DNA of 21,106 bases from Clostridia bacterium (GTDB lineage Bacteria > Bacillota > Clostridia > Oscillospirales > Acutalibacteraceae). The stretch spans positions 1 to 21,106 of the forward strand of contig JAGAMK010000052.1 of assembly GCA_017624735.1 (NCBI GenBank), given 5' to 3'. A model generated the notes under the pieces. It made no database searches and had not been told where the DNA came from. It saw only the letters and a program-made list of their open reading frames with translations. The translations under genes were made by a program, and so were the position numbers. Below, one piece after another: positions 3,285 through 21,106 of this stretch (position 1 is the first letter of the stretch; each line of letters begins with the position of its first letter).

Positions 3285-4747
3285 TGGCGGTTACAAGAAT
3301 ATGGCCGATAAAAAATAACATTCATCAGGTTGTGTCTTATGCTGCTAATAAAAGCAAAACTGATTTATCAAAATATTCTGACCTCGTTTCATCGCTTCAC
3401 TATGCCGCCGACAAGGATAAAACAAATCTTGAAAGTGAACAACGACTTCTTGTTGACGGTATTAACTGTGACCCTGACATTGCTGCACAGCAGATGATTG
3501 ATACAAAAGAAATGTATGGAAAGACGGGAGGCATTGTTGCCTATCACGCATATATTTCTTTCAAGCCTGGTGAAGTTTCACCTGAAGAAGCACAGCAGGT
3601 TGCAATGGAGGTTGCGAACAAAATGTGGGGAGCTGATTACGAAATGGTTGTTGCTACCCATCTCAATGCTAATTGTGTTCACTGTCATATCGTCATTAAT
3701 TCTGTTTCAATGACTGACGGAAGAAAGATGAATGAAGACAGAGCGATGTACCGACTGTTCAGAAAGACGAGTGATGAAATCTGTCTTGAGCACGGATTAT
3801 CTATTATTCAAAATCCTAAAGGCAAACGCATACCCTACAATGTTTACAAAGCAAAGCAGAAAGGTATCAAAACAAAATATGACTATATGCGTGAAGATAT
3901 TGATTACGCTATTCCGAGAAGCAGAAGCATAAAACAGTTTTTCAGAATAATGAGTCAGAAGGGTTATTGGTTTGATGACGGAAAGATAGCTTACCGTACC
4001 GACAAGCACGGAGTTAAGCTTTCAAATCTCGGCGATGATTACACCTATGAAAGTCTTTGGGATAGGATTAACCATCAGAGTCTTTATGAGGTGGATGAAA
4101 ATTTTTATAACTATACCCGTGCAAATAACTATCTTAAAAATCAAATCTTTGTTTTCAATTACAGAGGTTATGAGTTTAAAGAATCAGCAGAAAGCTACCG
4201 TCACCCTGAAAATTTCAGCAGAACTGTTTCAGATTTTTCAAAACTGATTGTGGGCGGTGCTGTACTCGGTGCACCTGTTGTTTCACTTTTCTTTCTTGCT
4301 CTCTTGTTTGTTGGAGCAATAGCAGAAAAGAATAACTGCAATCCTCATCCTTTCTCACCGAAGATGAAATACTCTGCACCGAGAATTGAGTTTATGAACA
4401 AGCAGATTGAGCTTGCAATCAACGAAAAGCTTTACGACTTTGCAGAGGTTGATAAATTCATTTCAAGAACAGATATTCGTATGGAGGAGCTTAAAACTCA
4501 GCGTAACAAAATTTACAACCAGATAAGAAGATGCAAAGACCCGACGGCTAAGGAAGACCTTATTGACCGTCGGGATTTTCTTACGTCTGAAATCGGCACA
4601 CTGCGTGAAAAGATTAACATTGCAAAACGAATTATCAAAGACAGACCGGGGCTTGAGGAAAGCCTTGAAGCGGAGAAAGCACTTATCCGTGAATGGTACT
4701 TCCCCGAAAGAGCACAGGTCAAAGAAAAACATTATGAAGGGAGGTAG
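3284..4747 (+). CDS. Relaxase/mobilisation nuclease (MobA/VirD2-type relaxase domain) with an internal hydrophobic segment and a coiled-coil C-terminus
   Basis: Histidine triad 'THLNANCVHCHIVINS' is typical of the Pfam Relaxase family. It is translationally coupled to mobC. A predicted TM-like stretch 'LIVGGAVLGAPVVSLFFLALLFVGAIA' lies at nt 4244-4324. Confidence 0.85.
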   Translation: MAVTRIWPIKNNIHQVVSYAANKSKTDLSKYSDLVSSLHYAADKDKTNLESEQRLLVDGINCDPDIAAQQMIDTKEMYGKTGGIVAYHAYISFKPGEVSPEEAQQVAMEVANKMWGADYEMVVATHLNANCVHCHIVINSVSMTDGRKMNEDRAMYRLFRKTSDEICLEHGLSIIQNPKGKRIPYNVYKAKQKGIKTKYDYMREDIDYAIPRSRSIKQFFRIMSQKGYWFDDGKIAYRTDKHGVKLSNLGDDYTYESLWDRINHQSLYEVDENFYNYTRANNYLKNQIFVFNYRGYEFKESAESYRHPENFSRTVSDFSKLIVGGAVLGAPVVSLFFLALLFVGAIAEKNNCNPHPFSPKMKYSAPRIEFMNKQIELAINEKLYDFAEVDKFISRTDIRMEELKTQRNKIYNQIRRCKDPTAKEDLIDRRDFLTSEIGTLREKINIAKRIIKDRPGLEESLEAEKALIREWYFPERAQVKEKHYEGR

Positions 4748-4752
4748 ATGCT

Positions 4753-4938
4753 ATGAATGCTGAAGAGCTTTGCAAGAAAATGCAGGAAGAGAAAAAGGCT
4801 GACAGTGAAAATTGTTATGAGAAAGAAATGTCATCAAGTGAATATTTTTCCAAGTATTCGGGTACACCTATGTACTCTGTCAGAAAACACTTACAGATTA
4901 TCAGAAATGAACAAAAAAAGTATAAAAGAAATTATTGA
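4753..4938 (+). CDS. Small hypothetical protein (61 aa), charged/lysine-rich
   Basis: The ATG is 6 nt after the relaxase stop and GGGAGG at 4739-4744 lies upstream. It stops just before the ParB-like gene's RBS. No recognisable motif. Confidence 0.4.
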   Translation: MNAEELCKKMQEEKKADSENCYEKEMSSSEYFSKYSGTPMYSVRKHLQIIRNEQKKYKRNY

Positions 4939-4956
4939 TTTTTATGGAGGTAAACT

Positions 4957-5799
4957 ATGTTTAATCAAAACATCAAATCACCGGTTAATATACCGGTATC
5001 AAAAATTCATCCCTTTGAGGGAAATCCCTACAAGGTGCTTGACAATGAGGAGATGAACTTTCTCATTGAAAGCATACAGCAGCAAGGTATTCTTACACCC
5101 ATTGTTGTAAGACCGTTGGAAAACACAAAAGATGAATATGAGGTTATAAGCGGACACCGACGCTTACACGCAACAGTTAAAGCAGGGATGAAAGAAGTCC
5201 CTGCTTTTATTTATGCCGTCACCCGTGACGAAGCGGCTATTATGCTTGTGGACAGCAATCTGCATAGAGAGCATATTCTTCCGTCGGAAAAGGCGTTTGC
5301 TTACAAATTGAAGCTTGAAGCAATGAAGCATCAGGGTATCACTTGTGGACAAGTTGGCCACAAGTCACGAGATGAAATTTCAGATACAGACAGCGGTAGA
5401 CAAATTCAACGTTATATTCGTCTGACTTATCTCATCCCCGAATTACTTGACCTTGTTGATGAAGAAAAAATCGCACTCACACCTGCGGTTGAGCTTTCAT
5501 ATCTCAATGAGGTGGAGCAGGCTGATTTGGTTGAAGAAATCTCTGCTTGTGATGCTACACCTAATTTATCTCAGGCGCAAAGGCTTCGTGCAATCAGCAG
5601 AGAGGAAGGTTTAACACCTGAGGATATAGGTGAAATATTGGCAGAGGAAAAGGCGAATCAGCGAGAGAAAATCAAAATCCCTGCTGAAAGAATACGAAAA
5701 TACTTTCCGAAAAGCTATACGACTGAACAGATTGAAGAAGCAATCATAAAAATCTGTGAGAGTAGATACAGAGCCCGTCAGGGCAGAGATGCGAGATAA
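4957..5799 (+). CDS. ParB/Srx N-terminal domain protein (ParB-like partition/nuclease family)
   Basis: GGAGG RBS. Motif 'VISGHRRLHA' (the GxxRxxA box) lies in a ParB N-terminal context: 'IHPFEGNPYKV...QQGILTPIVVRP'. Confidence 0.85.
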   Translation: MFNQNIKSPVNIPVSKIHPFEGNPYKVLDNEEMNFLIESIQQQGILTPIVVRPLENTKDEYEVISGHRRLHATVKAGMKEVPAFIYAVTRDEAAIMLVDSNLHREHILPSEKAFAYKLKLEAMKHQGITCGQVGHKSRDEISDTDSGRQIQRYIRLTYLIPELLDLVDEEKIALTPAVELSYLNEVEQADLVEEISACDATPNLSQAQRLRAISREEGLTPEDIGEILAEEKANQREKIKIPAERIRKYFPKSYTTEQIEEAIIKICESRYRARQGRDAR

Positions 5800-7879: not shown

Positions 7880-8512
7880 ATGAACAGGATGGAGTTAACA
7901 AGAAAGTATTGGAAATATTATTTGATGCTTGAAAAAAGGTTTATAGATTCCGCTGAGTATGTTGAATTTCACAAGGATAACTTTGAAGTGTTTTCTAATG
8001 GATATGCATTATTGATAGAAGCAATTGGTGCGGAATTGGATACGGTTTTCAAGGAGTTTTGCGGATTTAATATGGATGAAAGAAAGACAATAGCTGATTA
8101 TGCACAATTTGTCCTGTCTAATAATTCAGATATTGTAAATATTAAGATAGACCTTAGAGAGTACGATATAGAAATACAGCCATTTAAAAATTGGAACACA
8201 CAACAACCCGCACAAACTTTATTTTGGTGGTCGGCCTTTACAGATATAAAGCATAACCGTTATGATAATAAAACAAAAGCTAATTTAGAAAATGTCTTAA
8301 ATATCTTAGGTGCATTATATTTGATAGAAATGTTATTTTTGAAAAAAGCAACTGATAACACAACGGAATTAGATGTATTTGATGAATCTTCAAATTTGTT
8401 TACGCTGAAAAACTGGACAACAAAATCCATACCTTTGGAACGAGCTTTTGATGTTTTAGCAGATATGATCGAAAGAGATGATGGAACAACAGGTTTAGAG
8501 TTTGATGCGTAA
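7880..8512 (+). CDS. Hypothetical alpha-helical protein (210 aa); possibly a HEPN-like/abortive-infection-type protein
   Basis: Clean ORF with RBS and its own promoter, and visibly AT-richer than the flanking int. The motif 'LFWWSAFTDIKHNRYDNKTKANLENVLNILGALYLIE' (His codon at 8252-8254) reminds me of the WW-x-x-Y/F-N/T-x-I/V-KH-x-R signature of a HEPN-like family. This rests on recall only. Confidence 0.6.
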   Translation: MNRMELTRKYWKYYLMLEKRFIDSAEYVEFHKDNFEVFSNGYALLIEAIGAELDTVFKEFCGFNMDERKTIADYAQFVLSNNSDIVNIKIDLREYDIEIQPFKNWNTQQPAQTLFWWSAFTDIKHNRYDNKTKANLENVLNILGALYLIEMLFLKKATDNTTELDVFDESSNLFTLKNWTTKSIPLERAFDVLADMIERDDGTTGLEFDA

Positions 8513-8582: not shown

Positions 8583-8649
8583 ATACAGGAAAAAGCGAAA
8601 AAACGGTTGTACTTTTTCAAAAGTTATAGTAACTTACAGTAGGTTATAA

Positions 8650-8676
8650 ATTGTGGGGAGCCGGGCTCCCCACAAT
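8650..8676. repeat. 27-nt GC-rich near-perfect palindrome ATTGTGGGGAGCC-G-GGCTCCCCACAAT (hairpin or dimeric protein site)
   Basis: 13-bp arms read directly. No U-tract follows on the plus strand, so it is not a canonical terminator there. TTTATAACC follows on the minus strand. Confidence 0.5.
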
Positions 8677-8743
8677 GAAACCTTTGGACTAAGAAAAACC
8701 GCATAAACACTGTGTTTTTCGAGGTTTTAAACCGCTAAAATCG

Positions 8744-9753: not shown

Positions 9754-9756
9754 CGA

Positions 9757-9787
9757 AAAACACTTTGCTGTTACGGCAGAGTGTTTT
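9757..9787. terminator. Bidirectional intrinsic terminator between the convergent genes at 8896-9753 (+) and 9801-10136 (-)
   Basis: Stem AAAACACTTTG(9757-9767)/CAGAGTGTTTT(9777-9787) has 11 bp with one G-U pair and a 9-nt loop. A/T runs on both flanks give U-tracts on either strand. Confidence 0.5.
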
Positions 9788-9800
9788 CAACATTTTAAGG

Positions 9801-10136
9801 TTATTTATTCTTCAAAACAGATTTGGTAGTCTTAATTACTTCGGCAATAGATTTTAATTCTTCAGGAGAACAATCAGCAAGAATCTCATCAATCATCTTA
9901 ATTGAAACATGCGAGCTCTTAACTAAACTGCCGTATGCAATTTCGTCAAGAGTAACGCCAAGAGCGTTCGCAATATTAACAAGTGTCGGCAAGCTGAGCT
10001 TAGTTGCAGCACGTTCAATATGCGAAATGTTAGACGGTTCTACACCGGACTCTTCTGCGAGTTTGGCTTGTGTCCAACCTTTCGTTGTTCGAATTTCTTT
10101 TATACGATTACCAATTGAAATATAATCAATACCCAT
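9801..10136 (-). CDS. XRE-family helix-turn-helix transcriptional regulator (111 aa)
   Basis: 'IGNRIKEIRTTKGWTQAKLAEESGVEPSNISHIERAATKLSLPTLVNIANALGVTLDEI' is a canonical HTH_3/XRE pattern. Start set at the internal ATG (10136..10134), which is preceded by GAGGTGGA. The upstream 45 codons of the longer ORF are low-complexity AT-rich sequence. Confidence 0.85.
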   Translation of the reverse strand: MGIDYISIGNRIKEIRTTKGWTQAKLAEESGVEPSNISHIERAATKLSLPTLVNIANALGVTLDEIAYGSLVKSSHVSIKMIDEILADCSPEELKSIAEVIKTTKSVLKNK

Positions 10137-10170
10137 AGTATCCACCTCATAATTTACATTAATATTATTG

Positions 10171-10189
10171 TATATCCCATTCGGATATA
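10171..10189. promoter_or_regulatory. Candidate operator palindrome in the XRE/SLOG divergent intergenic region
   Basis: TATATCC-cattc-GGATATA has 7-bp arms. A further direct half-site copy TATATCCCA lies at 10203-10211. Confidence 0.35.
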
Positions 10190-10272
10190 TTAAAATAACG
10201 CATATATCCCAATAGGACACATAATAATATTTTTGGGGTTTTATTTTGCAAATTATGCGTGAGGTGAGCATA

Positions 10273-10761
10273 TTGATTGAAAATACCTGTTGCTTCTTCG
10301 GTCACAGAACGATAAACGAAACCGAGGAACTAAAATCAAAAATTATTGAAATTATTGAAAAATTAATTGTGGACGAAAATGTTGATACCTTTCTTTTCGG
10401 GAGCAAGAGCCGCTTTAATAGCCTGTGCCTTGAACTCGTGACCAAAATAAAAGAAAAATACCCGCACATAAAGCGAGTCTATGTACGGGCGGAATATCCA
10501 TATATCAGTGAGCACTATAAAAATTATCTGCTTGAAAGCTACGAGGATACATATTATCCTGAACATATTATTGGTTCAGGCAAGGCGGCTTATGTCGAGC
10601 GCAATTATGAGATGATAGACAACAGCCAATACTGCATCGTCTACTACGACGAACAAAATGCTCCTACTACTCGCAAAAGCGGCACCAAGATCGCGCTTGA
10701 CTATGCCATTAGAAAACAAAAGCACATTATTGTATTACCAACAGAAATAACAAATATGTAG
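10273..10761 (+). CDS. SLOG-superfamily protein, YpsA/DUF1273-type
   Basis: The N-terminal 'CCFFGHR' signature and 'YVERNYEMIDNSQYCIVYY...SGTKIALDYAIRKQKHII' match clostridial DUF1273 proteins as I recall them. The start is ambiguous: TTG 10273 (GAGGTGA 6 nt upstream) is preferred over ATG 10246 or 10255. The usual Gly-rich loop (GGAxGxD) is replaced by 'FGSKSRFNS'. Confidence 0.65.
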   Translation: MIENTCCFFGHRTINETEELKSKIIEIIEKLIVDENVDTFLFGSKSRFNSLCLELVTKIKEKYPHIKRVYVRAEYPYISEHYKNYLLESYEDTYYPEHIIGSGKAAYVERNYEMIDNSQYCIVYYDEQNAPTTRKSGTKIALDYAIRKQKHIIVLPTEITNM

Positions 10762-10857
10762 AAATACGCAAAATTGTTCGATGTAATATTGACTTGCAAG
10801 TAGGGATATGCTATAATAAGAGCGTAAAAATGCGTAAATACGCAAAATTATTCGATG
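10762..10857. repeat. Pair of 22-bp direct repeats, AAATACGCAAAATTGTTCGATG (10762-10783) and AAATACGCAAAATTATTCGATG (10836-10857), bracketing a promoter; embedded palindrome TGCGTAaaTACGCA at 10831-10844
   Basis: Read directly, 21/22 identical. The first copy begins at the nucleotide after the SLOG stop codon. The second ends at the ATPase RBS. Confidence 0.7.
10789..10817 (+). promoter_or_regulatory. Consensus SigA/sigma70 promoter of the ATPase gene
   Basis: TTGACT (10789-10794), a 17-nt spacer, then TATAAT (10812-10817). This is one mismatch from the full consensus, 52 nt upstream of the ATG at 10869. Confidence 0.7.
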
Positions 10858-10868
10858 AGGTATGCGTT

Positions 10869-12167
10869 ATGATTGAAAGAAAAAAGTATCTCGAAAAATT
10901 GATCAGCAAAAAGGAGAACGGCTTAGTTAAGGTTATTACCGGTATCAGACGATGCGGTAAATCTTATTTGCTGTTCAATATATATAAGGACTATTTGAAG
11001 TCAATCGGAGTAGAAGACGAGTGTATTATTTGCCTTGCTCTTGATGATGACGAAAATATTCAGTATCGTAATCCCCTTGAACTCGGCAAACATATCCGCA
11101 GCTTGACTGCCGATGAGAGCAAAACTTACTACGTTTTCCTTGATGAGATTCAAAAGGTTGTTACCATTCAGAATCCGTATATCGAGGGTGTTGAGGATAA
11201 GATCGGTTTTGTCGATGTTGTGCTTGGTCTTATGAAGCACGACAATATTGACGTGTATGTTACCGGCAGTAACTCAAAAATGCTGTCCTCCGATATCCTC
11301 ACCGAGTTCCGTGGCCGTGGCGATGAAATCAGAGTTAATCCGCTTTCCTTTGCGGAGTTTTATAATGCTTTCGAGGGAGAAAAGCGCAATGCTTGGCAGG
11401 AGTATTACACCTATGGTGGTCTTCCCCTCGTAATGACTAAAAAGAGTCATGAAGAAAAAGCGAAATATTTGCAATCGCTTTTTGATGCAATCTATATCAG
11501 CGACATTATGGATAGAAACAAGCTTGTGTACGAAAAAACGGTGCTTGACGATATTCTTAACATAGTTTCGTCTTCGGTTGGCTCACTTACTAATGCTAAC
11601 AAGATTACCAACACCTTTAAGAGTGCGAAGCAGATGAATATCGGTGCGCCCACCGTTAACAGATATCTGGACTATTTCATTGATGCGTTCCTTCTCTACA
11701 AAGCCGAACGTTATGACGTTAAGGGAAGAAAGTATATCGGCTCGCCGCTTAAATACTATTTCAGTGATGTGGGACTTCGCAATGCGCGACTTAATTTCCG
11801 TCAGCAAGAAGAGAATCACATTATGGAAAACATTATTTATAACGAGCTTTGCGGTCGTGATTTCAGCGTGGATGTCGGCGTGGTCGAGTATTGCTATAAA
11901 GATGCAGAAAAGAAGAGCAAACGTACCCAGCTTGAAATCGACTTTGTTGCGAATAAGGGTAGCAAAAAATACTATATTCAGTCGGCATTGACCGTCGCAG
12001 ACGAGGAAAAGCGTGAGCAAGAGATCCGTTCCTTAAAGCGTGTCGGCGATTCTTTTAAGAAGATTGTAGTAGTTAAAGACAACATCATCCCCTGGCACGA
12101 TGACGACGGCATCCTCTACATCGGCATCGAACAATTCCTGCTTGATGAGAATGCAATGGATATGTGA
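10869..12167 (+). CDS. AAA_14 P-loop ATPase with C-terminal DUF4143 (restriction-endonuclease-like fold) domain
   Basis: Start at ATG 10869 (GAGG 8 nt upstream); the longer ORF would begin inside the promoter. Walker A is 'GIRRCGKSYLL' and Walker B is 'VFLDEIQ'. The C-terminal 'LEIDFVANKGSKKYYIQSA' sits where DUF4143 proteins usually carry a D...E-x-K motif, here Q-S-A. Confidence 0.75.
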   Translation: MIERKKYLEKLISKKENGLVKVITGIRRCGKSYLLFNIYKDYLKSIGVEDECIICLALDDDENIQYRNPLELGKHIRSLTADESKTYYVFLDEIQKVVTIQNPYIEGVEDKIGFVDVVLGLMKHDNIDVYVTGSNSKMLSSDILTEFRGRGDEIRVNPLSFAEFYNAFEGEKRNAWQEYYTYGGLPLVMTKKSHEEKAKYLQSLFDAIYISDIMDRNKLVYEKTVLDDILNIVSSSVGSLTNANKITNTFKSAKQMNIGAPTVNRYLDYFIDAFLLYKAERYDVKGRKYIGSPLKYYFSDVGLRNARLNFRQQEENHIMENIIYNELCGRDFSVDVGVVEYCYKDAEKKSKRTQLEIDFVANKGSKKYYIQSALTVADEEKREQEIRSLKRVGDSFKKIVVVKDNIIPWHDDDGILYIGIEQFLLDENAMDM

Positions 12168-12258
12168 AAACTTTGCTGTAATCTTTAGATTGAAACGCTT
12201 TAACTATTAATGTGAATTTCGTAGATGCTTAAGATGTGATAACTAAGGAGGTCTAACG

Positions 12259-14633: not shown

Positions 14634-15254
14634 ATGGAACATAAGCACATTTGCGATCTGACACCAATAGAATTTGAAAGGTATTGTTATAACTTTTTGA
14701 ATGGATATGCCAAAAAGGAAGGATTGCAGGATTTCAAGATAACTCACAACACAAGAATCAAAGCTTCCGATGGCAAATACCAGATAGACGTTTATGCTGA
14801 GTTTACCGCTATGGGCTCCCGATTCAAAGTTTTGTGTGAATGTAAGAAATACAAAAACAGAGTGAACAGAGATAAAGTCGCCATTCTCCACCGCAAGCTT
14901 GAAAGCATCGGTGCACAAAAAGGCATTTTGATTTCAACAAGCGACTTTCAAAGCGGAGCTGTTGAATACGGAAAAGCACACGGAATTACTTTGATTAAAG
15001 CCGAAGATTATCATTTTGAATATCTTTCCCATTCCAGCGGTCAGCAGCAAAATGATGACAATGATCCGTTCCTTTATGCTGAAAAACATATGCCTCCGTA
15101 TGTTGCATTTGATTGCACTGCTGATACCGAGGAACCTCTTAAAATATATCCCACACGGGAAATGATTAAAGAACTCCTCATAGAACAAAGCCACAAGATT
15201 AAAGAAATATTAGGTATTGACGTACCACTTGATTTTTCAGATATAGATACATAA
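14634..15254 (+). CDS. Mrr-cat-type restriction endonuclease domain protein (206 aa) nested between hsdR and hsdM
   Basis: AGGTGG RBS, 14 nt after the hsdR stop. 'LTPIEFERYCYNFL...DGKYQIDVYAE...FKVLCECKKYKNRVNRDKVAILHRKLESIGAQKGILISTSDFQSGAVEYGKAHGITLI' fits the Mrr_cat D...E-x-K pattern. The C-terminal 70 aa or so are unassigned. Confidence 0.8.
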   Translation: MEHKHICDLTPIEFERYCYNFLNGYAKKEGLQDFKITHNTRIKASDGKYQIDVYAEFTAMGSRFKVLCECKKYKNRVNRDKVAILHRKLESIGAQKGILISTSDFQSGAVEYGKAHGITLIKAEDYHFEYLSHSSGQQQNDDNDPFLYAEKHMPPYVAFDCTADTEEPLKIYPTREMIKELLIEQSHKIKEILGIDVPLDFSDIDT

Positions 15255-16795: not shown

Positions 16796-18207
16796 CACCG
16801 CAAGAATTGAAAGCAAGTATTTTGCAGTTGGCAATACAAGGAAAACTTGTTGAGCAATGTCCACAAGAAGGTACAGGTGAAGAATTGTTCCAGCAGATTC
16901 AGGTAGAAAAGCAGGCGCTCATCAAAGCCGGCAAAATCAAAAAAGAAAAGCCACTGCCTGAGATTCAAGAGGATGAGATTCCTTTCGAAATACCAAATAG
17001 TTGGGTTTGGATTAGGTTAGGCACTATAGTTAAAAGCATTTCTGCTGGCGGCGATAAACCTAAAATCTTTTCAAAAAGCAGAACCGCAGAATGTTCAGTG
17101 CCTGTAATATCAAATGGAGAAACCAATAAGGGTATATTCGGATACACGGATAAGGCTGAAATTACAGAGCGAAGTTTAACTGTTTCAGGAAGGGGCACCA
17201 TTGGATATGCCGAGATAAGGACGGAACCATATGTGCCGATCGTAAGACTTCTTGTTATAACGCCACTTGGCCATACATACTTGGAGTATATTAAGATAGC
17301 AATTCAGGCCTCTACTGAATATGGCGTAGGTTCGGCTGTGAAACAACTTACAGTACCTATGCTTGTTCCAAAGTTGATTCCGCTTCCGCCATTAGCCGAA
17401 CAAAAACGGATTGTGGCAAAGATTACGGAACTGATGCCCTATATCGACCGCTACGAACAAGCATGGAATAAGCTAGAGGACTTCAACACGCGTTTCCCTG
17501 TGGAGATGCAGAAATCCATCCTCCAGATGGCCATTCAGGGCAAACTGGTGGAGCAGCGCCATGAAGAAGGCACCGGCGAAGAATTGTTCCAGCAGATTCA
17601 GGTAGAAAAGCAGGCGCTCATCAAAGCCGGCAAAATCAAAAAAGAAAAGCCTCTTCCCGAAATTACAGAAGATGAGCTTCCGTTTGATATTCCGGAGAAT
17701 TGGCGTTGGGTACGGTGGGGTGATTTGTCGCAATCTATCCAGTACGGATATAATGCACCGGCTCAAGAAAAAGGTCGCATCAAAATGGTGCGAATCAGTG
17801 ATATTCAAGATGGAAAAGTGTTATGGGATACAGTTCCGTATTGTGATATCAAAGAAGATGACATCCCCACATACCTGCTTGGTGCAAACGATATTCTTTT
17901 TGCAAGAACAGGTGGTACAGTCGGCAAGTCTTATTTGGTGAAAGAAGTTCCAGAAGAAGCAATATATGCAGGATACCTTATTCGGACACAGTATAGTTCA
18001 CTTTTGTGTCCCGAATACATGAAGTATTTTATGGAGAGCCAGCTGTATTGGGATCAATTGAGAAACGGAACAATTGCAACTGCACAGCCAAACTGTAATG
18101 GCAAGACTTTGTCTAAAATGATCTTGCCACTCCCACCCCTTGCAGAGCAGAAGCGCATTGTTGCCAAACTGGAAGAAATCCTGCCGCTGTGCGAAAAGTT
18201 GAAATAA
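16792..18207 (+). CDS. hsdS: Type I R-M specificity subunit (HsdS), two target-recognition domains
   Basis: Duplicated conserved helices: 'ILQLAIQGKLVEQ...GEELFQQIQVEKQALIKAGKIKKEKPLPEI' (N-terminal and central) and 'PLPPLAEQKRIVAK' (central and C-terminal). These flank two dissimilar TRDs. Confidence 0.92.
   Translation: MTPQELKASILQLAIQGKLVEQCPQEGTGEELFQQIQVEKQALIKAGKIKKEKPLPEIQEDEIPFEIPNSWVWIRLGTIVKSISAGGDKPKIFSKSRTAECSVPVISNGETNKGIFGYTDKAEITERSLTVSGRGTIGYAEIRTEPYVPIVRLLVITPLGHTYLEYIKIAIQASTEYGVGSAVKQLTVPMLVPKLIPLPPLAEQKRIVAKITELMPYIDRYEQAWNKLEDFNTRFPVEMQKSILQMAIQGKLVEQRHEEGTGEELFQQIQVEKQALIKAGKIKKEKPLPEITEDELPFDIPENWRWVRWGDLSQSIQYGYNAPAQEKGRIKMVRISDIQDGKVLWDTVPYCDIKEDDIPTYLLGANDILFARTGGTVGKSYLVKEVPEEAIYAGYLIRTQYSSLLCPEYMKYFMESQLYWDQLRNGTIATAQPNCNGKTLSKMILPLPPLAEQKRIVAKLEEILPLCEKLK
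16879..16952 (+). repeat. 74-nt perfect direct repeat, copy 1 (hsdS N-terminal conserved region)
   Basis: Identical base for base to 17578-17651, an offset of 699 nt (233 codons, in frame). Confidence 0.85.
17578..17651 (+). repeat. 74-nt perfect direct repeat, copy 2 (hsdS central conserved region)
   Basis: Identical to 16879-16952. The flanks encode the same amino acids but differ at most synonymous positions. Confidence 0.85.
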
Positions 18208-18289: not shown

Positions 18290-21106
18290 ATGTGGGGAGA
18301 AATAATTTTAGCATTAGGACCTTCCGTTTTAGAAGCTATTGGATCTAAATTGTTAGATCGCAAAAACAAAGTTAAGGTGCAAAATAAACTAAATGATATT
18401 GTCAGCAAGCAATTTGATTGTTTTGCCGATTCTTCTTTGGATAGCGATAGTTTTTATACTCTAATTAAAAGTACCCGCTTTGTCGAAATTATTCGAAATT
18501 ATTTCTTTATGGTTAGAGACAATCAAAGTATCGAAGATTATCGCGCAAATATAGAAGCCTTGATTTGTGACGAATGTAAGTCTGCGAATATCCTCGATGT
18601 AAAAGAATTTGTCAGAAAAATAGAGGCATTATACATAGATTTCTTGAGTAAAATAATAGAAGATTACCCTGGAATCTATGTGGCTTTTCAATTGATGTCT
18701 ATTTCTCACAGAGAGATTATATCCAATATCCGAGGTAGTCAAAACGAATTAAAGAGGTATTTAGCGACATTGGAAAACAGAAAAGTTACTATTAGTGATG
18801 AAAATATCAGGCAGTACCATACAGTTACGGAAAAAGAATTTGGAGAAATTCGATTTACTGGAATTGCAGGTGCGGAACGTCGCAAAGCACAAAATATTAA
18901 CGAATTCTATGTTGAAAATACCTTCTCTTATTTTGGGAAAGAAATCGATCGGCTATATGAGTACAATGATGAAGAAATCGAATCAATAAAATTAAAAGAT
19001 TTTTTTGATTTAGGAAATAAAATTATATTGATAGGTGGGGCCGGACTTGGAAAATCCACTACGCTTAACTATCTTTTTTGTAACTATGAAAAATTGTATG
19101 ATGCCACTGCTTTAAAATTAAAGATAGATTTAAAAGAATATGCCGAAGAAATAGGCGAAAAGAAAAAAGGCGTATTATGGTGTGTTGCCAATGAATTTAG
19201 AAAGCGAATAAAGTATGCGGGTCAAACCACAGAAGAACTTCAGGCAGTAGTTGCTGAAAAACTGAATTCAGGGGCTTGCTTGGTTATATTAGATGCTCTT
19301 GATGAAATTCCTACACAAGCGCTTCGTGATACTGTAAGAAATGAAATCGAAACTTTCACATCGGTGTATTATCTTAATAGGTTTATAATTTCAACAAGGG
19401 AAGCTGGATATTTAAAAAATAGGTTCGATGAAACTTTTCTGCATATAAGAATCAATAAGTTTAATTCTGAGCAAATAAAAAAATATAGTAAGAATTGGTT
19501 TTTGTCAAATTATGAAGACTCAACTGATTTTGATGAGTTTTGGAACAAATTTGAAGATGAAGTTAAAAGAGCAAGATGTCACAACTTGATAAGAAATCCT
19601 ATCATTCTAGTGTTAGCATTGGTAATATTTAATTTTGAAAGTAGTTTACCTACAAGAAGAATAGAATTTTATCAAAAATGTATTGATACCTTTTTGACCG
19701 AACGCGAAAACCGAAAAGCTGCTGTTAAACTAAGTGATAAAACTAAAAGCATTTTGGCAATGAACTTAACTGTTCCTAAAATTGCTTTTTATAGACACAA
19801 TAAATTAATGAAAAACAGTAGTTTTCGGTTTGATTATTCTGAGCTGGAAAAGGCTATTAAGGAAGCAATATCCGTCGAGGATGAAATTAATTGGGCAACT
19901 GCCATAAAACAATATTCCGAATATTTAGTCGAAAGAACAGAGTTAATTCAAGAAATAGACGAGAACCATCTTGATTTTGCACACAAGACCTTTTATGAGT
20001 ATTTCTTGGCCTTTTATTTTTGTAAGATGTGTGATAACAAGGAACTAGTCAATTTGCTTCACAAGTGGATTGGAGATCCAAACTATGATGAGTTGGCTCG
20101 ATTGATTATCGAAGTTGTCATCCAAAATAATGAACCAAAACAGCACGATAAGATAATTGAGTGTTTATTTGAAATGCTCTCCCATAAAAACAGAGATAGA
20201 ATAGAAGGACCGGATACGCGTGATGTGTTTGCGGTTATATCTGACCTCTATACTCACAACTTGTTACAACCTAAATATCAATACAATTACCACAAATTCG
20301 TTTTATATAATCCTCAAATTATAGATCACATGAATTTTAGATACAGACGAAGAGAAGTTAAGAATAATTTGGCTTTATATGATCCTCAAATTGTTAAGGA
20401 TTTATTCTTGGCGGATTATCAAAATGGAAAACTTGTAGATGTGATTGATACTATCGCTTATTTGAATAATGAGTTTAAAAAAGCGGTCATCCCATTAGAT
20501 GCATCAGGTTTGCTTTATAATACTAACGAGTTGTTTATGACCCTTAGGGAGAAAAATAAGAAATCTAAAAATGATATGGATATTATTAAATATTTCACAG
20601 AGGATGGTATCAAATACACCTTAAAGTATCCTCAAATTTTTGTGGCTCTAATATCTTTATCAATAAAAACAAAGACTGCATTACCTATAGAGCAGTTGCT
20701 TAGATACGATTTTTCTCCAAGAAATGTTTTTTACAACTATACTTCACCTGATATCTTGATATCGTTAGTAGAAAACGCAATGAAAAGTAAAGATGATTTT
20801 GCGTTGTTTCTGACCGCAGTTATTGATTGCGCTCTTCAAGCTGCAAATTCAATTTGTAATTTCGTGATAAGCAACCGAAGCGATAGTCGTGATAAAGCGG
20901 TGAGTTGTTTCTATGCACAGTTGTGGAGGGTGTTGAACGAATCAAACTCTGTAGATGAATTTAAGAGCTGGATAAAAGAATTGGGACTTTTCGATGAAAA
21001 ATATGATTATCTGTACGAAAAAATGTATGCTCATTATTCAAGCACGGAAAAAGGTCTTTATGATGAACGCATTAAAAAATTTATAAAAAAAGAAAACATC
21101 AACTAA
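18290..21106 (+). CDS. NACHT-type STAND NTPase (bacterial NLR-like, 938 aa) with unassigned N-terminal (about aa 1-240) and C-terminal (about aa 600-938) regions
   Basis: AAGGAG RBS at 18274-18279. Walker A 'ILIGGAGLGKSTTL' (nt 19034-19057), Walker B 'LVILDALDEI' (nt 19280-19306), 'IISTRE' sensor-like motif, 'IRNPIILVLAL' (NACHT NPLxL-like), winged-helix 'LDFAHKTFYEYFLAFYF'. The ORF ends at the last base of the window. Confidence 0.85.
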   Translation: MWGEIILALGPSVLEAIGSKLLDRKNKVKVQNKLNDIVSKQFDCFADSSLDSDSFYTLIKSTRFVEIIRNYFFMVRDNQSIEDYRANIEALICDECKSANILDVKEFVRKIEALYIDFLSKIIEDYPGIYVAFQLMSISHREIISNIRGSQNELKRYLATLENRKVTISDENIRQYHTVTEKEFGEIRFTGIAGAERRKAQNINEFYVENTFSYFGKEIDRLYEYNDEEIESIKLKDFFDLGNKIILIGGAGLGKSTTLNYLFCNYEKLYDATALKLKIDLKEYAEEIGEKKKGVLWCVANEFRKRIKYAGQTTEELQAVVAEKLNSGACLVILDALDEIPTQALRDTVRNEIETFTSVYYLNRFIISTREAGYLKNRFDETFLHIRINKFNSEQIKKYSKNWFLSNYEDSTDFDEFWNKFEDEVKRARCHNLIRNPIILVLALVIFNFESSLPTRRIEFYQKCIDTFLTERENRKAAVKLSDKTKSILAMNLTVPKIAFYRHNKLMKNSSFRFDYSELEKAIKEAISVEDEINWATAIKQYSEYLVERTELIQEIDENHLDFAHKTFYEYFLAFYFCKMCDNKELVNLLHKWIGDPNYDELARLIIEVVIQNNEPKQHDKIIECLFEMLSHKNRDRIEGPDTRDVFAVISDLYTHNLLQPKYQYNYHKFVLYNPQIIDHMNFRYRRREVKNNLALYDPQIVKDLFLADYQNGKLVDVIDTIAYLNNEFKKAVIPLDASGLLYNTNELFMTLREKNKKSKNDMDIIKYFTEDGIKYTLKYPQIFVALISLSIKTKTALPIEQLLRYDFSPRNVFYNYTSPDILISLVENAMKSKDDFALFLTAVIDCALQAANSICNFVISNRSDSRDKAVSCFYAQLWRVLNESNSVDEFKSWIKELGLFDEKYDYLYEKMYAHYSSTEKGLYDERIKKFIKKENIN

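Follow-up and report, generated by a model that had tools for sequence, protein, structure and literature searches.

A YpsA-family SLOG gene with a divergent putative repressor and an adjoining AAA_14/DUF4143 ATPase gene in a gut Clostridia genome: probably two independent units

The stretch of DNA analysed here (the window) comprises 21,106 nucleotides, positions 1 to 21,106 of the forward strand of contig JAGAMK010000052.1, from the Clostridia bacterium assembly GCA_017624735.1 (Oscillospirales, Acutalibacteraceae). Its interval 9801–12167 holds three genes that a preliminary description, made from the sequence alone, had grouped as a candidate nucleotide-sensing conflict module. On the minus strand lies a 111-aa XRE-family repressor gene (9801–10136; an N-terminal helix–turn–helix, HTH, and a helical tail of ~45 aa; HTH_3 at 3.4e-16); divergent from it, on the plus strand, lie the gene for a 162-aa SLOG protein of the YpsA/YoqJ family (10273–10761) and then that for a 432-aa P-loop ATPase (10869–12167; Pfam AAA_14 at 3e-27, DUF4143 at 1e-16). 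The domains named in that description were all recovered by profile searches (HTH_3, PF06908, AAA_14 and DUF4143), and the three open reading frames (ORFs) are real rather than chance, because the SLOG gene evolves at a dN/dS of ~0.10 and the ATPase protein remains 99% identical at 92–95% DNA identity. The grouping is another matter. With a probability of roughly 70%, we read the interval as two independent units that are neighbours in one lineage only: a compact two-gene cassette (~9756–10761), in which the XRE repressor is divergent from the SLOG gene, and an autonomous ATPase gene (10762–12167), with its own promoter between two 22-bp boxes, at the head of a type I restriction–modification (R-M)/Mrr/NACHT island.

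The distribution of the three genes carries this reading. Loci were searched for with a 14-sequence SLOG alignment and compared in two sets: the best 80 of more than 575 loci among GTDB species representatives, mostly metagenome-assembled genomes of Acutalibacteraceae, Oscillospiraceae and Ruminococcus (set 1; SLOG 72–94% identical), and 81 further loci, taken from metagenomes (of more than 450) and one viral contig (set 2; SLOG 42–87% identical). The ATPase gene follows the SLOG gene in six of these 161 loci, five in set 1 (L016, L017, L018, L019 and L021) and only one in set 2 (L143), L017 being counted although its contig ends after both boxes of the ATPase control region described below, and in all six the junction is exactly that of the window. 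Remnants of the ATPase unit persist in three loci, consisting of box 1 only after the SLOG stop codon (L020, 2505–2523), of a box and the first ten ATPase codons (L022, 750–810) or of box 1 and the promoter (L078, 5755–5810), so that here the ATPase was deleted while the SLOG gene stayed. As for the repressor, an XRE gene of the window's type adjoins the SLOG gene in about six of the 80 set 1 loci, none of which has the ATPase. In L004 the window-type XRE and SLOG genes are followed by unrelated genes. Joint presence of this XRE and the ATPase is limited to the window and three close relatives (L002, L003 and L005) that have a greA–lysS–transglutaminase backbone in common.

The ATPase gene also occurs by itself. 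Copies encoding proteins 88% (P0229 and P0235) and 90% (P0215) identical stand alone in three differing contexts, namely following a pilin/sortase cluster, in a locus with phage-type genes upstream (L013) and between genes for pyruvate phosphate dikinase and a beta-helix protein; two of the three are chromosomal, and tblastn finds no trace of SLOG at these stand-alone loci. Such copies, the single junction and the deletions all support a fallback offered in the preliminary description, that the ATPase is an unrelated neighbour. They leave little room for its first proposal, one conflict system in which the SLOG protein would sense a nucleotide, the ATPase would be effector or scaffold and XRE would control both. 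The genes are indeed adjacent, with no terminator detected between SLOG and ATPase, the trio adjoins the R-M island and it recurs in L002, L003 and L005; but these carriers are close relatives on one backbone, window-type XRE and ATPase coincide in 0 of the 80 species-representative loci, the ATPase has a strong promoter of its own, and an operator scan of the window found no XRE operator near that promoter. Conservation of gene neighbourhood had been named in advance as the check on the trio; homologues of the three genes proved not to be syntenic, and we consider it very improbable that they form a single system.

The space between the SLOG and ATPase genes is best understood as the control region of the latter. 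Its sigma-70-type promoter (TTGACT and TATAAT 17 nt apart, with an extended −10 TG; 10789–10817, plus strand) matches consensus at 11 of 12 positions, the best in the region, and stands between two 22-nt direct repeats with the core AAATACGCAAA, of which the window has two copies versus 0 expected. Box 1, AAATACGCAAAATTGTTCGATG (10762–10783, plus strand), abuts the SLOG stop codon; box 2, AAATACGCAAAATTATTCGATG (10836–10857, plus strand), lies in the 5′ leader and overlaps the palindrome TGCGTAAATACGCA (10831–10844). The same box–promoter–box layout occurs in the stand-alone ATPase loci L006, L009, L013 (~4890–5000), L105 and L108 (~3390–3500), and is kept there although DNA identity has fallen to ~78%. 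Among the ATPase-bearing loci the 107-nt junction is 97–100% identical, as against 84–91% for the DNA of the SLOG gene and 92–95% for that of the ATPase gene. The junction is thus more conserved than either flanking gene, which indicates that the control region is constrained and belongs to the ATPase. It is a speculation that the two boxes might be sites for the ATPase's own DNA-binding region.

The conserved junction may be taken another way, as the mark of a functional SLOG–ATPase pair in one sub-lineage, in which a single capture would have placed the ATPase at the SLOG stop codon and cooperation would have kept it there. An identical junction is maintained beside four regulator types (XRE-111, XRE-77, HTH_26 and Arc), and read-through from the SLOG promoter into the ATPase gene is possible. 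However, the box–promoter–box element, being present in the stand-alone copies as well, explains the conservation of the junction; L020, L022 and L078 keep SLOG after loss of the ATPase; and joint transfer of neighbouring genes requires no functional tie. We therefore hold a cooperating pair to be distinctly unlikely, and continue with the reading of two independent units.

Several further observations concern the ATPase gene and its neighbours. In L001 a second, partial SLOG gene (7989–8339; residues 48–164, 71% identical) directly follows the ATPase, giving the order SLOG–ATPase–′SLOG, an arrangement compatible with an insertion that recombined into a SLOG gene already in place. The DNA identity of L002 to the window is a mosaic (XRE gene and intergenic region 99%, SLOG 90%, junction 98%, ATPase 93.5%), and such a pattern suggests that recombination or gene conversion has acted within SLOG. 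In the loci with P0215-type copies (L105–L108, ~3330–3360), a stretch a little way upstream of the ATPase control region reads by eye like the 3′ end of a tRNA gene; L108 has a large serine recombinase gene upstream of the ATPase (820–2601), at a place taken by other genes in its sister loci. The 3′ end of the ATPase gene adjoins, in the Ruminococcus loci, an element with a tyrosine integrase, which has a truncated DUF4143 gene at its far side (L006, 10290–11198).

The ATPase protein starts at ATG 10869; an upstream ATG at 10830 is immediately followed by a stop codon in L006, L009 and L013, where the homologues have diverged. Both Walker A (GIRRCGKS) and Walker B (VFLDEIQ) are intact, and a sub-threshold match to a regulatory protein (E 0.2) over residues 218–286 suggests a winged-helix-like middle region. 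In the C-terminal PD-(D/E)xK-like region, which reads E320 … EID358F … YIQ371SA, D358 is present and the (D/E)xK position is occupied by Q371-S-A, so the catalytic D…(D/E)xK triad is incomplete. The preliminary description had correctly read Q-S-A at this position, and the glutamine extends well beyond the window, with YVQSA or YIQSA in homologues of 88–90% identity, YVQSA at 52% and YIQIT at 29%. The order of predicted secondary-structure elements in the DUF4143 region (alpha-beta-beta-beta-alpha-beta) appears compatible with a PD-(D/E)xK fold; the AlphaFold model of the ATPase, built on a shallow alignment with rows 88–96% identical, has a pLDDT of 49.6. A sequence search of the PDB gave no significant match for either the ATPase or the SLOG protein.

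Among defence models, the PADLOC model PDLC04787 for PDC-S01 matches the ATPase along its full length (E 4.7e-107; residues 13–452 of the 457-aa ORF against 6–409 of 412 model positions). PDC-S01, in which an ATPase is fused to a PD-(D/E)xK-superfamily domain, is a candidate that consists of one gene; it is reported to be the fourth most common ‘defence’ in prokaryotes, and most PDCs await validation (PMC12988326). What defined the PDC candidates was their position inside systems of the BREX, DISARM or type I R-M kind (bioRxiv 10.1101/2024.01.29.577857). The full-length match, the single-gene organization and the adjoining type I R-M genes are all shared, nothing separates the window ATPase from the family, and the 88–90% identical copies that stand alone with their own promoter point, at the level of genome sequence, to a true single-gene unit. 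By profile, then, the window ATPase is an ordinary member of the already catalogued candidate PDC-S01. It could act as a single-gene sensor of nucleic acid dependent on nucleoside triphosphate, or as a defence candidate, with a nuclease-fold domain that would be non-canonical and possibly non-cleaving.

We turn now to the cassette on the left. The XRE gene had been listed as an ORF of 156 aa, which is over-extended; its homologues in L002–L005 are called at 111 aa. Copies 83–100% identical lie divergent and upstream of SLOG in L002–L005, L032, L060, L064, L069 and L070. Beyond the regulator stop codon, a bidirectional terminator hairpin read from the sequence (9756–9787; A5, a stem of 9761–9768 with 9776–9783, and T4) forms the left edge of the cassette, and a similar hairpin follows the regulator stop codon in other loci, where inter-locus DNA homology ends; L001 retains a piece of it. 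Between the XRE and SLOG genes are 136 bp with two palindromes. The first, predicted operator O1 (10171–10188), is a perfect palindrome, TATATCC-N5-GGATAT, lying within the spacer of what we read as the SLOG promoter (plus strand; TTGTAT at 10168–10173, a spacer of 17 nt and TAAAAT at 10191–10196). The second, predicted operator O2 (10203–10220), is imperfect (TATATCC-N5-GGACAC) and lies 32 bp, or three helical turns, from O1 on the side of the XRE promoter. Across nine aligned loci with window-type XRE the half-sites of both are largely kept, with single-base changes in a few loci; those of O1 are kept in eight of the nine, L060 differing by one base. The observed number of operator matches was reached by none of 100 shuffles.

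The only other close match to the operator in the window is a near-perfect copy inside hsdS (17734–17752; TCTATCC-N5-GGATAT, one mismatch), possibly by chance. The XRE protein matches the DicA model weakly. It also matches the PADLOC capH model (7e-13), and regulation of the CapH/CapP kind was considered and set aside, there being no CapP-type metallopeptidase in the window; the capH match is probably generic similarity among XRE proteins.

The divergent pairing of XRE and SLOG, as first described, is well supported by the wider comparison, in which the type of regulator varies. A small divergent regulator lies immediately upstream of SLOG in 60 of the 73 set 1 loci with a callable SLOG ORF (HTH_3 in 24, HTH_26 in 21 and Arc in 15) and in 43 of the 56 set 2 loci with enough upstream sequence, or in ~80% of loci across both sets, these counts being lower bounds with some error from the ORF calling. 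Several of the remaining set 1 loci are artefacts of antisense ORF calling. The viral contig, with a SLOG of 42% identity, likewise has XRE genes upstream. Inter-locus DNA homology extends rightward as far as the SLOG stop codon; leftward its limit is the SLOG start, or, where two loci have the same type of regulator, it continues through the intergenic region and the regulator to the terminator hairpin. It follows from this pattern that the regulator and the operator region act as one exchangeable half. At least six genomes among the best 80 loci carry two SLOG copies, and in both of the two-copy genomes in which both regulators could be typed their families differ. More than one regulator may also stand upstream of a single SLOG gene: L062 has XRE-112, HTH_26-80 and Arc-66 in tandem, and L053 three XRE genes. 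In sum, the cassette has sharp boundaries and is found widely among gut Oscillospirales, with a regulator half exchangeable among three unrelated DNA-binding families, and in these samples the SLOG clade does not occur outside gut Clostridia (Acutalibacteraceae, Oscillospiraceae and Ruminococcus). We found no description of a repressor–SLOG cassette in the searchable literature, which did not include the key 2015 SLOG survey.

The surroundings of the cassette are varied and mostly housekeeping. The two flank scans yielded 169 Pfam families from 132 proteins and 193 from 150, with lysS and greA the most frequent, and neither integrase nor relaxase is among the 25 most frequent families of either flank scan (282 proteins). 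At the cassette ends we saw no inverted repeats or target duplications; the left end has just the terminator, and the right end the stop codon. A single SLOG relative was found among 2.9 million viral contigs of IMG/VR, for which reason a phage origin of the cassette was dropped. Given housekeeping flanks, no enrichment of integrases and that one viral match, the other half of the fallback in the preliminary description, that the SLOG protein is a DprA-like accessory of a mobile element, is not supported. Defence genes are a different case: ~15% of the proteins at positions +1 and +2 from SLOG match PADLOC models at 1e-10, among them PDC-S01, PDC-M13A/B, type I and IIG R-M, DndB, PbeA, DrmMI and SoFic, a proportion that may be higher than a typical genome background. 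Downstream of SLOG in L004, L025, L029 and L044 there also recurs a gene combining HTH_3 and DUF3990 with a 138-aa partner. PDC-M13A and PDC-M13B are each matched by three of the +1/+2 proteins; we take these to be the same pair, and it would then make a further candidate defence unit on the 3′ side of SLOG.

The SLOG protein itself is assigned by profile, AlphaFold model and Foldseek. Its gene starts at TTG 10273 behind the ribosome-binding site GAGGTGAG, giving 162 aa, the most frequent length among homologues (longer SLOG-containing 50%-identity representatives, with AAA_22 or a methyltransferase attached, look like truncations or chimeras and were excluded). Pfam PF06908 (YpsA) scores 35.5 bits against a gathering cutoff of 27.7 and covers positions 21–163 of the 168-position profile; the model has a pLDDT of 84.5, and its best Foldseek matches, all with probability 1.0, are ShosA (8zva; E 9.5e-6, TM 0.62), YpsA (2nx2; E 1.5e-5, TM 0.62), DprA (TM 0.52–0.58) and the SLOG domain of ThsA (TM 0.46–0.53). 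PADLOC has no match for the protein, and the DprA family is absent from its Pfam and NCBIfam output. The original SLOG call thus holds by profile as well as by predicted fold.

Whether this SLOG protein has decayed, as ‘degenerate’ in the preliminary description implied, can be judged from its relatives. Counting from the M-R-E-V start of the 168-aa query, the clade shows the motifs GHR (16–18), FGSxSxF(N/D) (48–55), RN (116–117) and SGT (142–144), the window's ‘FGSKSRFNS’ being residues 48–56. The GxD/E signature of B. subtilis YpsA consists of G53 and E55, and the mutants G53A and E55Q have lost function (PMC6459960). When a profile of 61 clade members was compared with YpsA by hhalign, the loop aligned ungapped, with R53 opposite G53 and N55 opposite E55; the numbering of the YpsA sequence used agrees with the mutants of PMC6459960. 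The replacement of the Gly-rich loop was thus rightly noticed, R-F-N standing at the YpsA signature. Over 153 ORFs of the clade, position 53 takes R, Q, E, D, A, K, C or N, in none G, and position 55 is divided between N (93) and D (60). Little or no variation, by contrast, is seen at G16-H17-R18, G49, S50, S52, F54, R116-N117 and G143, and T144 comes near to this. The gene is under purifying selection (median dN/dS 0.10, same ORFs). Given these invariant residues and this selection, the loop is not decayed; it marks a clade with a conserved pocket of its own, and ‘degenerate’ was too strong.

Placed beside known systems, the protein is closest in family to YpsA of B. subtilis (PF06908/DUF1273, 2NX2), with which it shares the SLOG fold and a small single-domain build; it differs in that its clade lacks the GxD/E signature and in having a divergent small repressor as partner. 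A gpsB neighbour, which characterizes ‘YpsA proper’, is found neither in the window nor among the 25 families listed per flank scan (282 proteins). By profile and fold the SLOG protein belongs to the YpsA family, but it is not YpsA proper. YoqJ is the SPbeta prophage paralogue of YpsA, and one source names a homologue ‘phage-like protein YoqJ’. The SLOG classification of Burroughs et al. (2015) is cited here through PMC6459960 and PMC9503650. The likeness to ThsA of Thoeris is one of fold, and ThsA provides a precedent for a SLOG domain sensing a nucleotide signal; here, however, SLOG is a single domain without a fused SIR2 or membrane effector, and there is no SIR2 or TIR in the window. With DprA/Smf the likeness is structural alone, as neither a DprA profile match nor flanking SAM/winged-helix domains were found.

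The predicted model is closest to ShosA of the toxin–antitoxin defence system ShosTA, whose SLOG domain is YpsA/DprA-like, and this suggests that the window's protein might be a protective, antitoxin-like or DNA-repair-like factor, as ShosA and DprA are, whose level the divergent regulator only tunes. ShosA (308 aa) is paired with the phosphoribosyltransferase (PRTase) toxin ShosT, binds DNA and counteracts the toxin (PMC11961720); DprA follows closely in the structural ranking, and a protein that binds nucleic acid might well have such invariant Arg residues. Against this, no ShosT-type PRTase occurs in the window or among the listed flank families, nor does any other recurrent partner lie beside the cassette; Pfam gives no DprA match; the structural scores of ShosA and YpsA are equal; and an exchangeable repressor with its operator within the promoter suggests tight silencing, which is commoner for harmful products. 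A protective role seems to us improbable.

In organization the cassette resembles type II toxin–antitoxin systems, being a small two-gene unit that is dispersed, sharp-edged and present in several copies per genome, with XRE-HTH and ribbon–helix–helix/Arc partners exchanged; the difference is that its genes are divergent rather than co-directional, and nothing indicates that the regulator and SLOG proteins bind each other. A second parallel is DicA/DicB of the E. coli Qin prophage, in which an XRE repressor is divergent from a gene whose derepressed product blocks cell division. The divergent XRE arrangement is the likeness; DicB is unrelated to SLOG, and the analogy would rest on the YpsA overproduction data.

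Taken together, these features suggest how the cassette may work. XRE would bind O1 and O2 as dimers and shut off both the SLOG promoter and its own, silencing of the SLOG promoter being expected because O1 lies in the promoter spacer. The SLOG protein would then be made only once repression lifts, as might suit a product that is harmful or conditionally needed, and could bind a phosphate-bearing ligand, either a nucleotide derivative or nucleic acid, through a pocket formed by the GHR, GSxSxF(N/D), RN and SGT motifs. The outcome might be arrest of growth or division, by analogy with YpsA, whose overproduction in B. subtilis stops cell division (PMC6459960). We offer this gated growth-arrest role as a tentative suggestion, much less probable than the division of the interval into two units.

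A number of points weigh against the reading as a whole. R and N occupy positions critical for function in YpsA, so the analogy with that protein may not transfer. No plus-strand terminator was found between the SLOG and ATPase genes, and their junction has persisted over 5–8% DNA divergence beside the four regulator types; functional coupling of the two in this sub-lineage is still admissible. Some link exists between the 3′ flank of the cassette and defence genes, for which the two-unit reading does not account, and the regulator counts come from ORFs called by a crude greedy method.

The setting of the interval is largely as first described, between the end of a mobile element and a type I R-M/NACHT cluster, save that a gene for a transglutaminase-like membrane protein, the one gene between the element end and the XRE gene, intervenes on the left. 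The mobilisable element (265 to ~8666) encodes Cys_rich_VLP, MobC/NikA, relaxase, ParB_N and Tn916-type integrase proteins and a 210-aa protein of unknown function (7880–8512). Comparison with L002 and L005 places its insertion site at the 3′ end of lysS, the final 26 nt of which remain in the window at 8667–8692 and match those loci; an inverted repeat, TTGTGGGGAG / CTCCCCACAA, spans the element–lysS junction at ~8648–8675. On the right, directly downstream of the ATPase gene and from 12259 on, follow hsdR, Mrr_cat, hsdM, hsdS and a NACHT gene. The Mrr_cat gene (14634–15254), between hsdR and hsdM, has a restriction-endonuclease fold and matches PADLOC PDC-S02 and mREase_IV weakly; the large NACHT-type NTPase (18290–21106) extends past the window end, and its match to the NCBIfam antiphage protein EruA is weak (8.6e-10, far under the cutoff). 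Rfam and tRNA scans of the whole window returned nothing.

If the interval is two units, a phenotype of the cloned fragment 9757–12200 ascribed to the trio would confound them. A wider proposal, which we judge unlikely, is that the cassette is an undescribed stand-alone, transcriptionally gated growth-arrest or immunity module whose orthogonal repressor/operator halves let copies coexist, and that the SLOG 3′ end is a landing site at which defence genes accumulate (PDC-S01, PDC-M13-like, R-M, Dnd/Pbe and parts of DISARM); if that were true, the window would be one such landing. The ATPase is already catalogued, and as a clean natural example of PDC-S01 as a self-contained unit it would be useful for testing an abundant, unvalidated candidate. 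What is new is a variant clade of the YpsA family with a private, exchangeable repressor, and since this clade is very common in the human and ruminant gut it may offer a tractable route to the function of YpsA-like SLOG proteins outside Bacillus.

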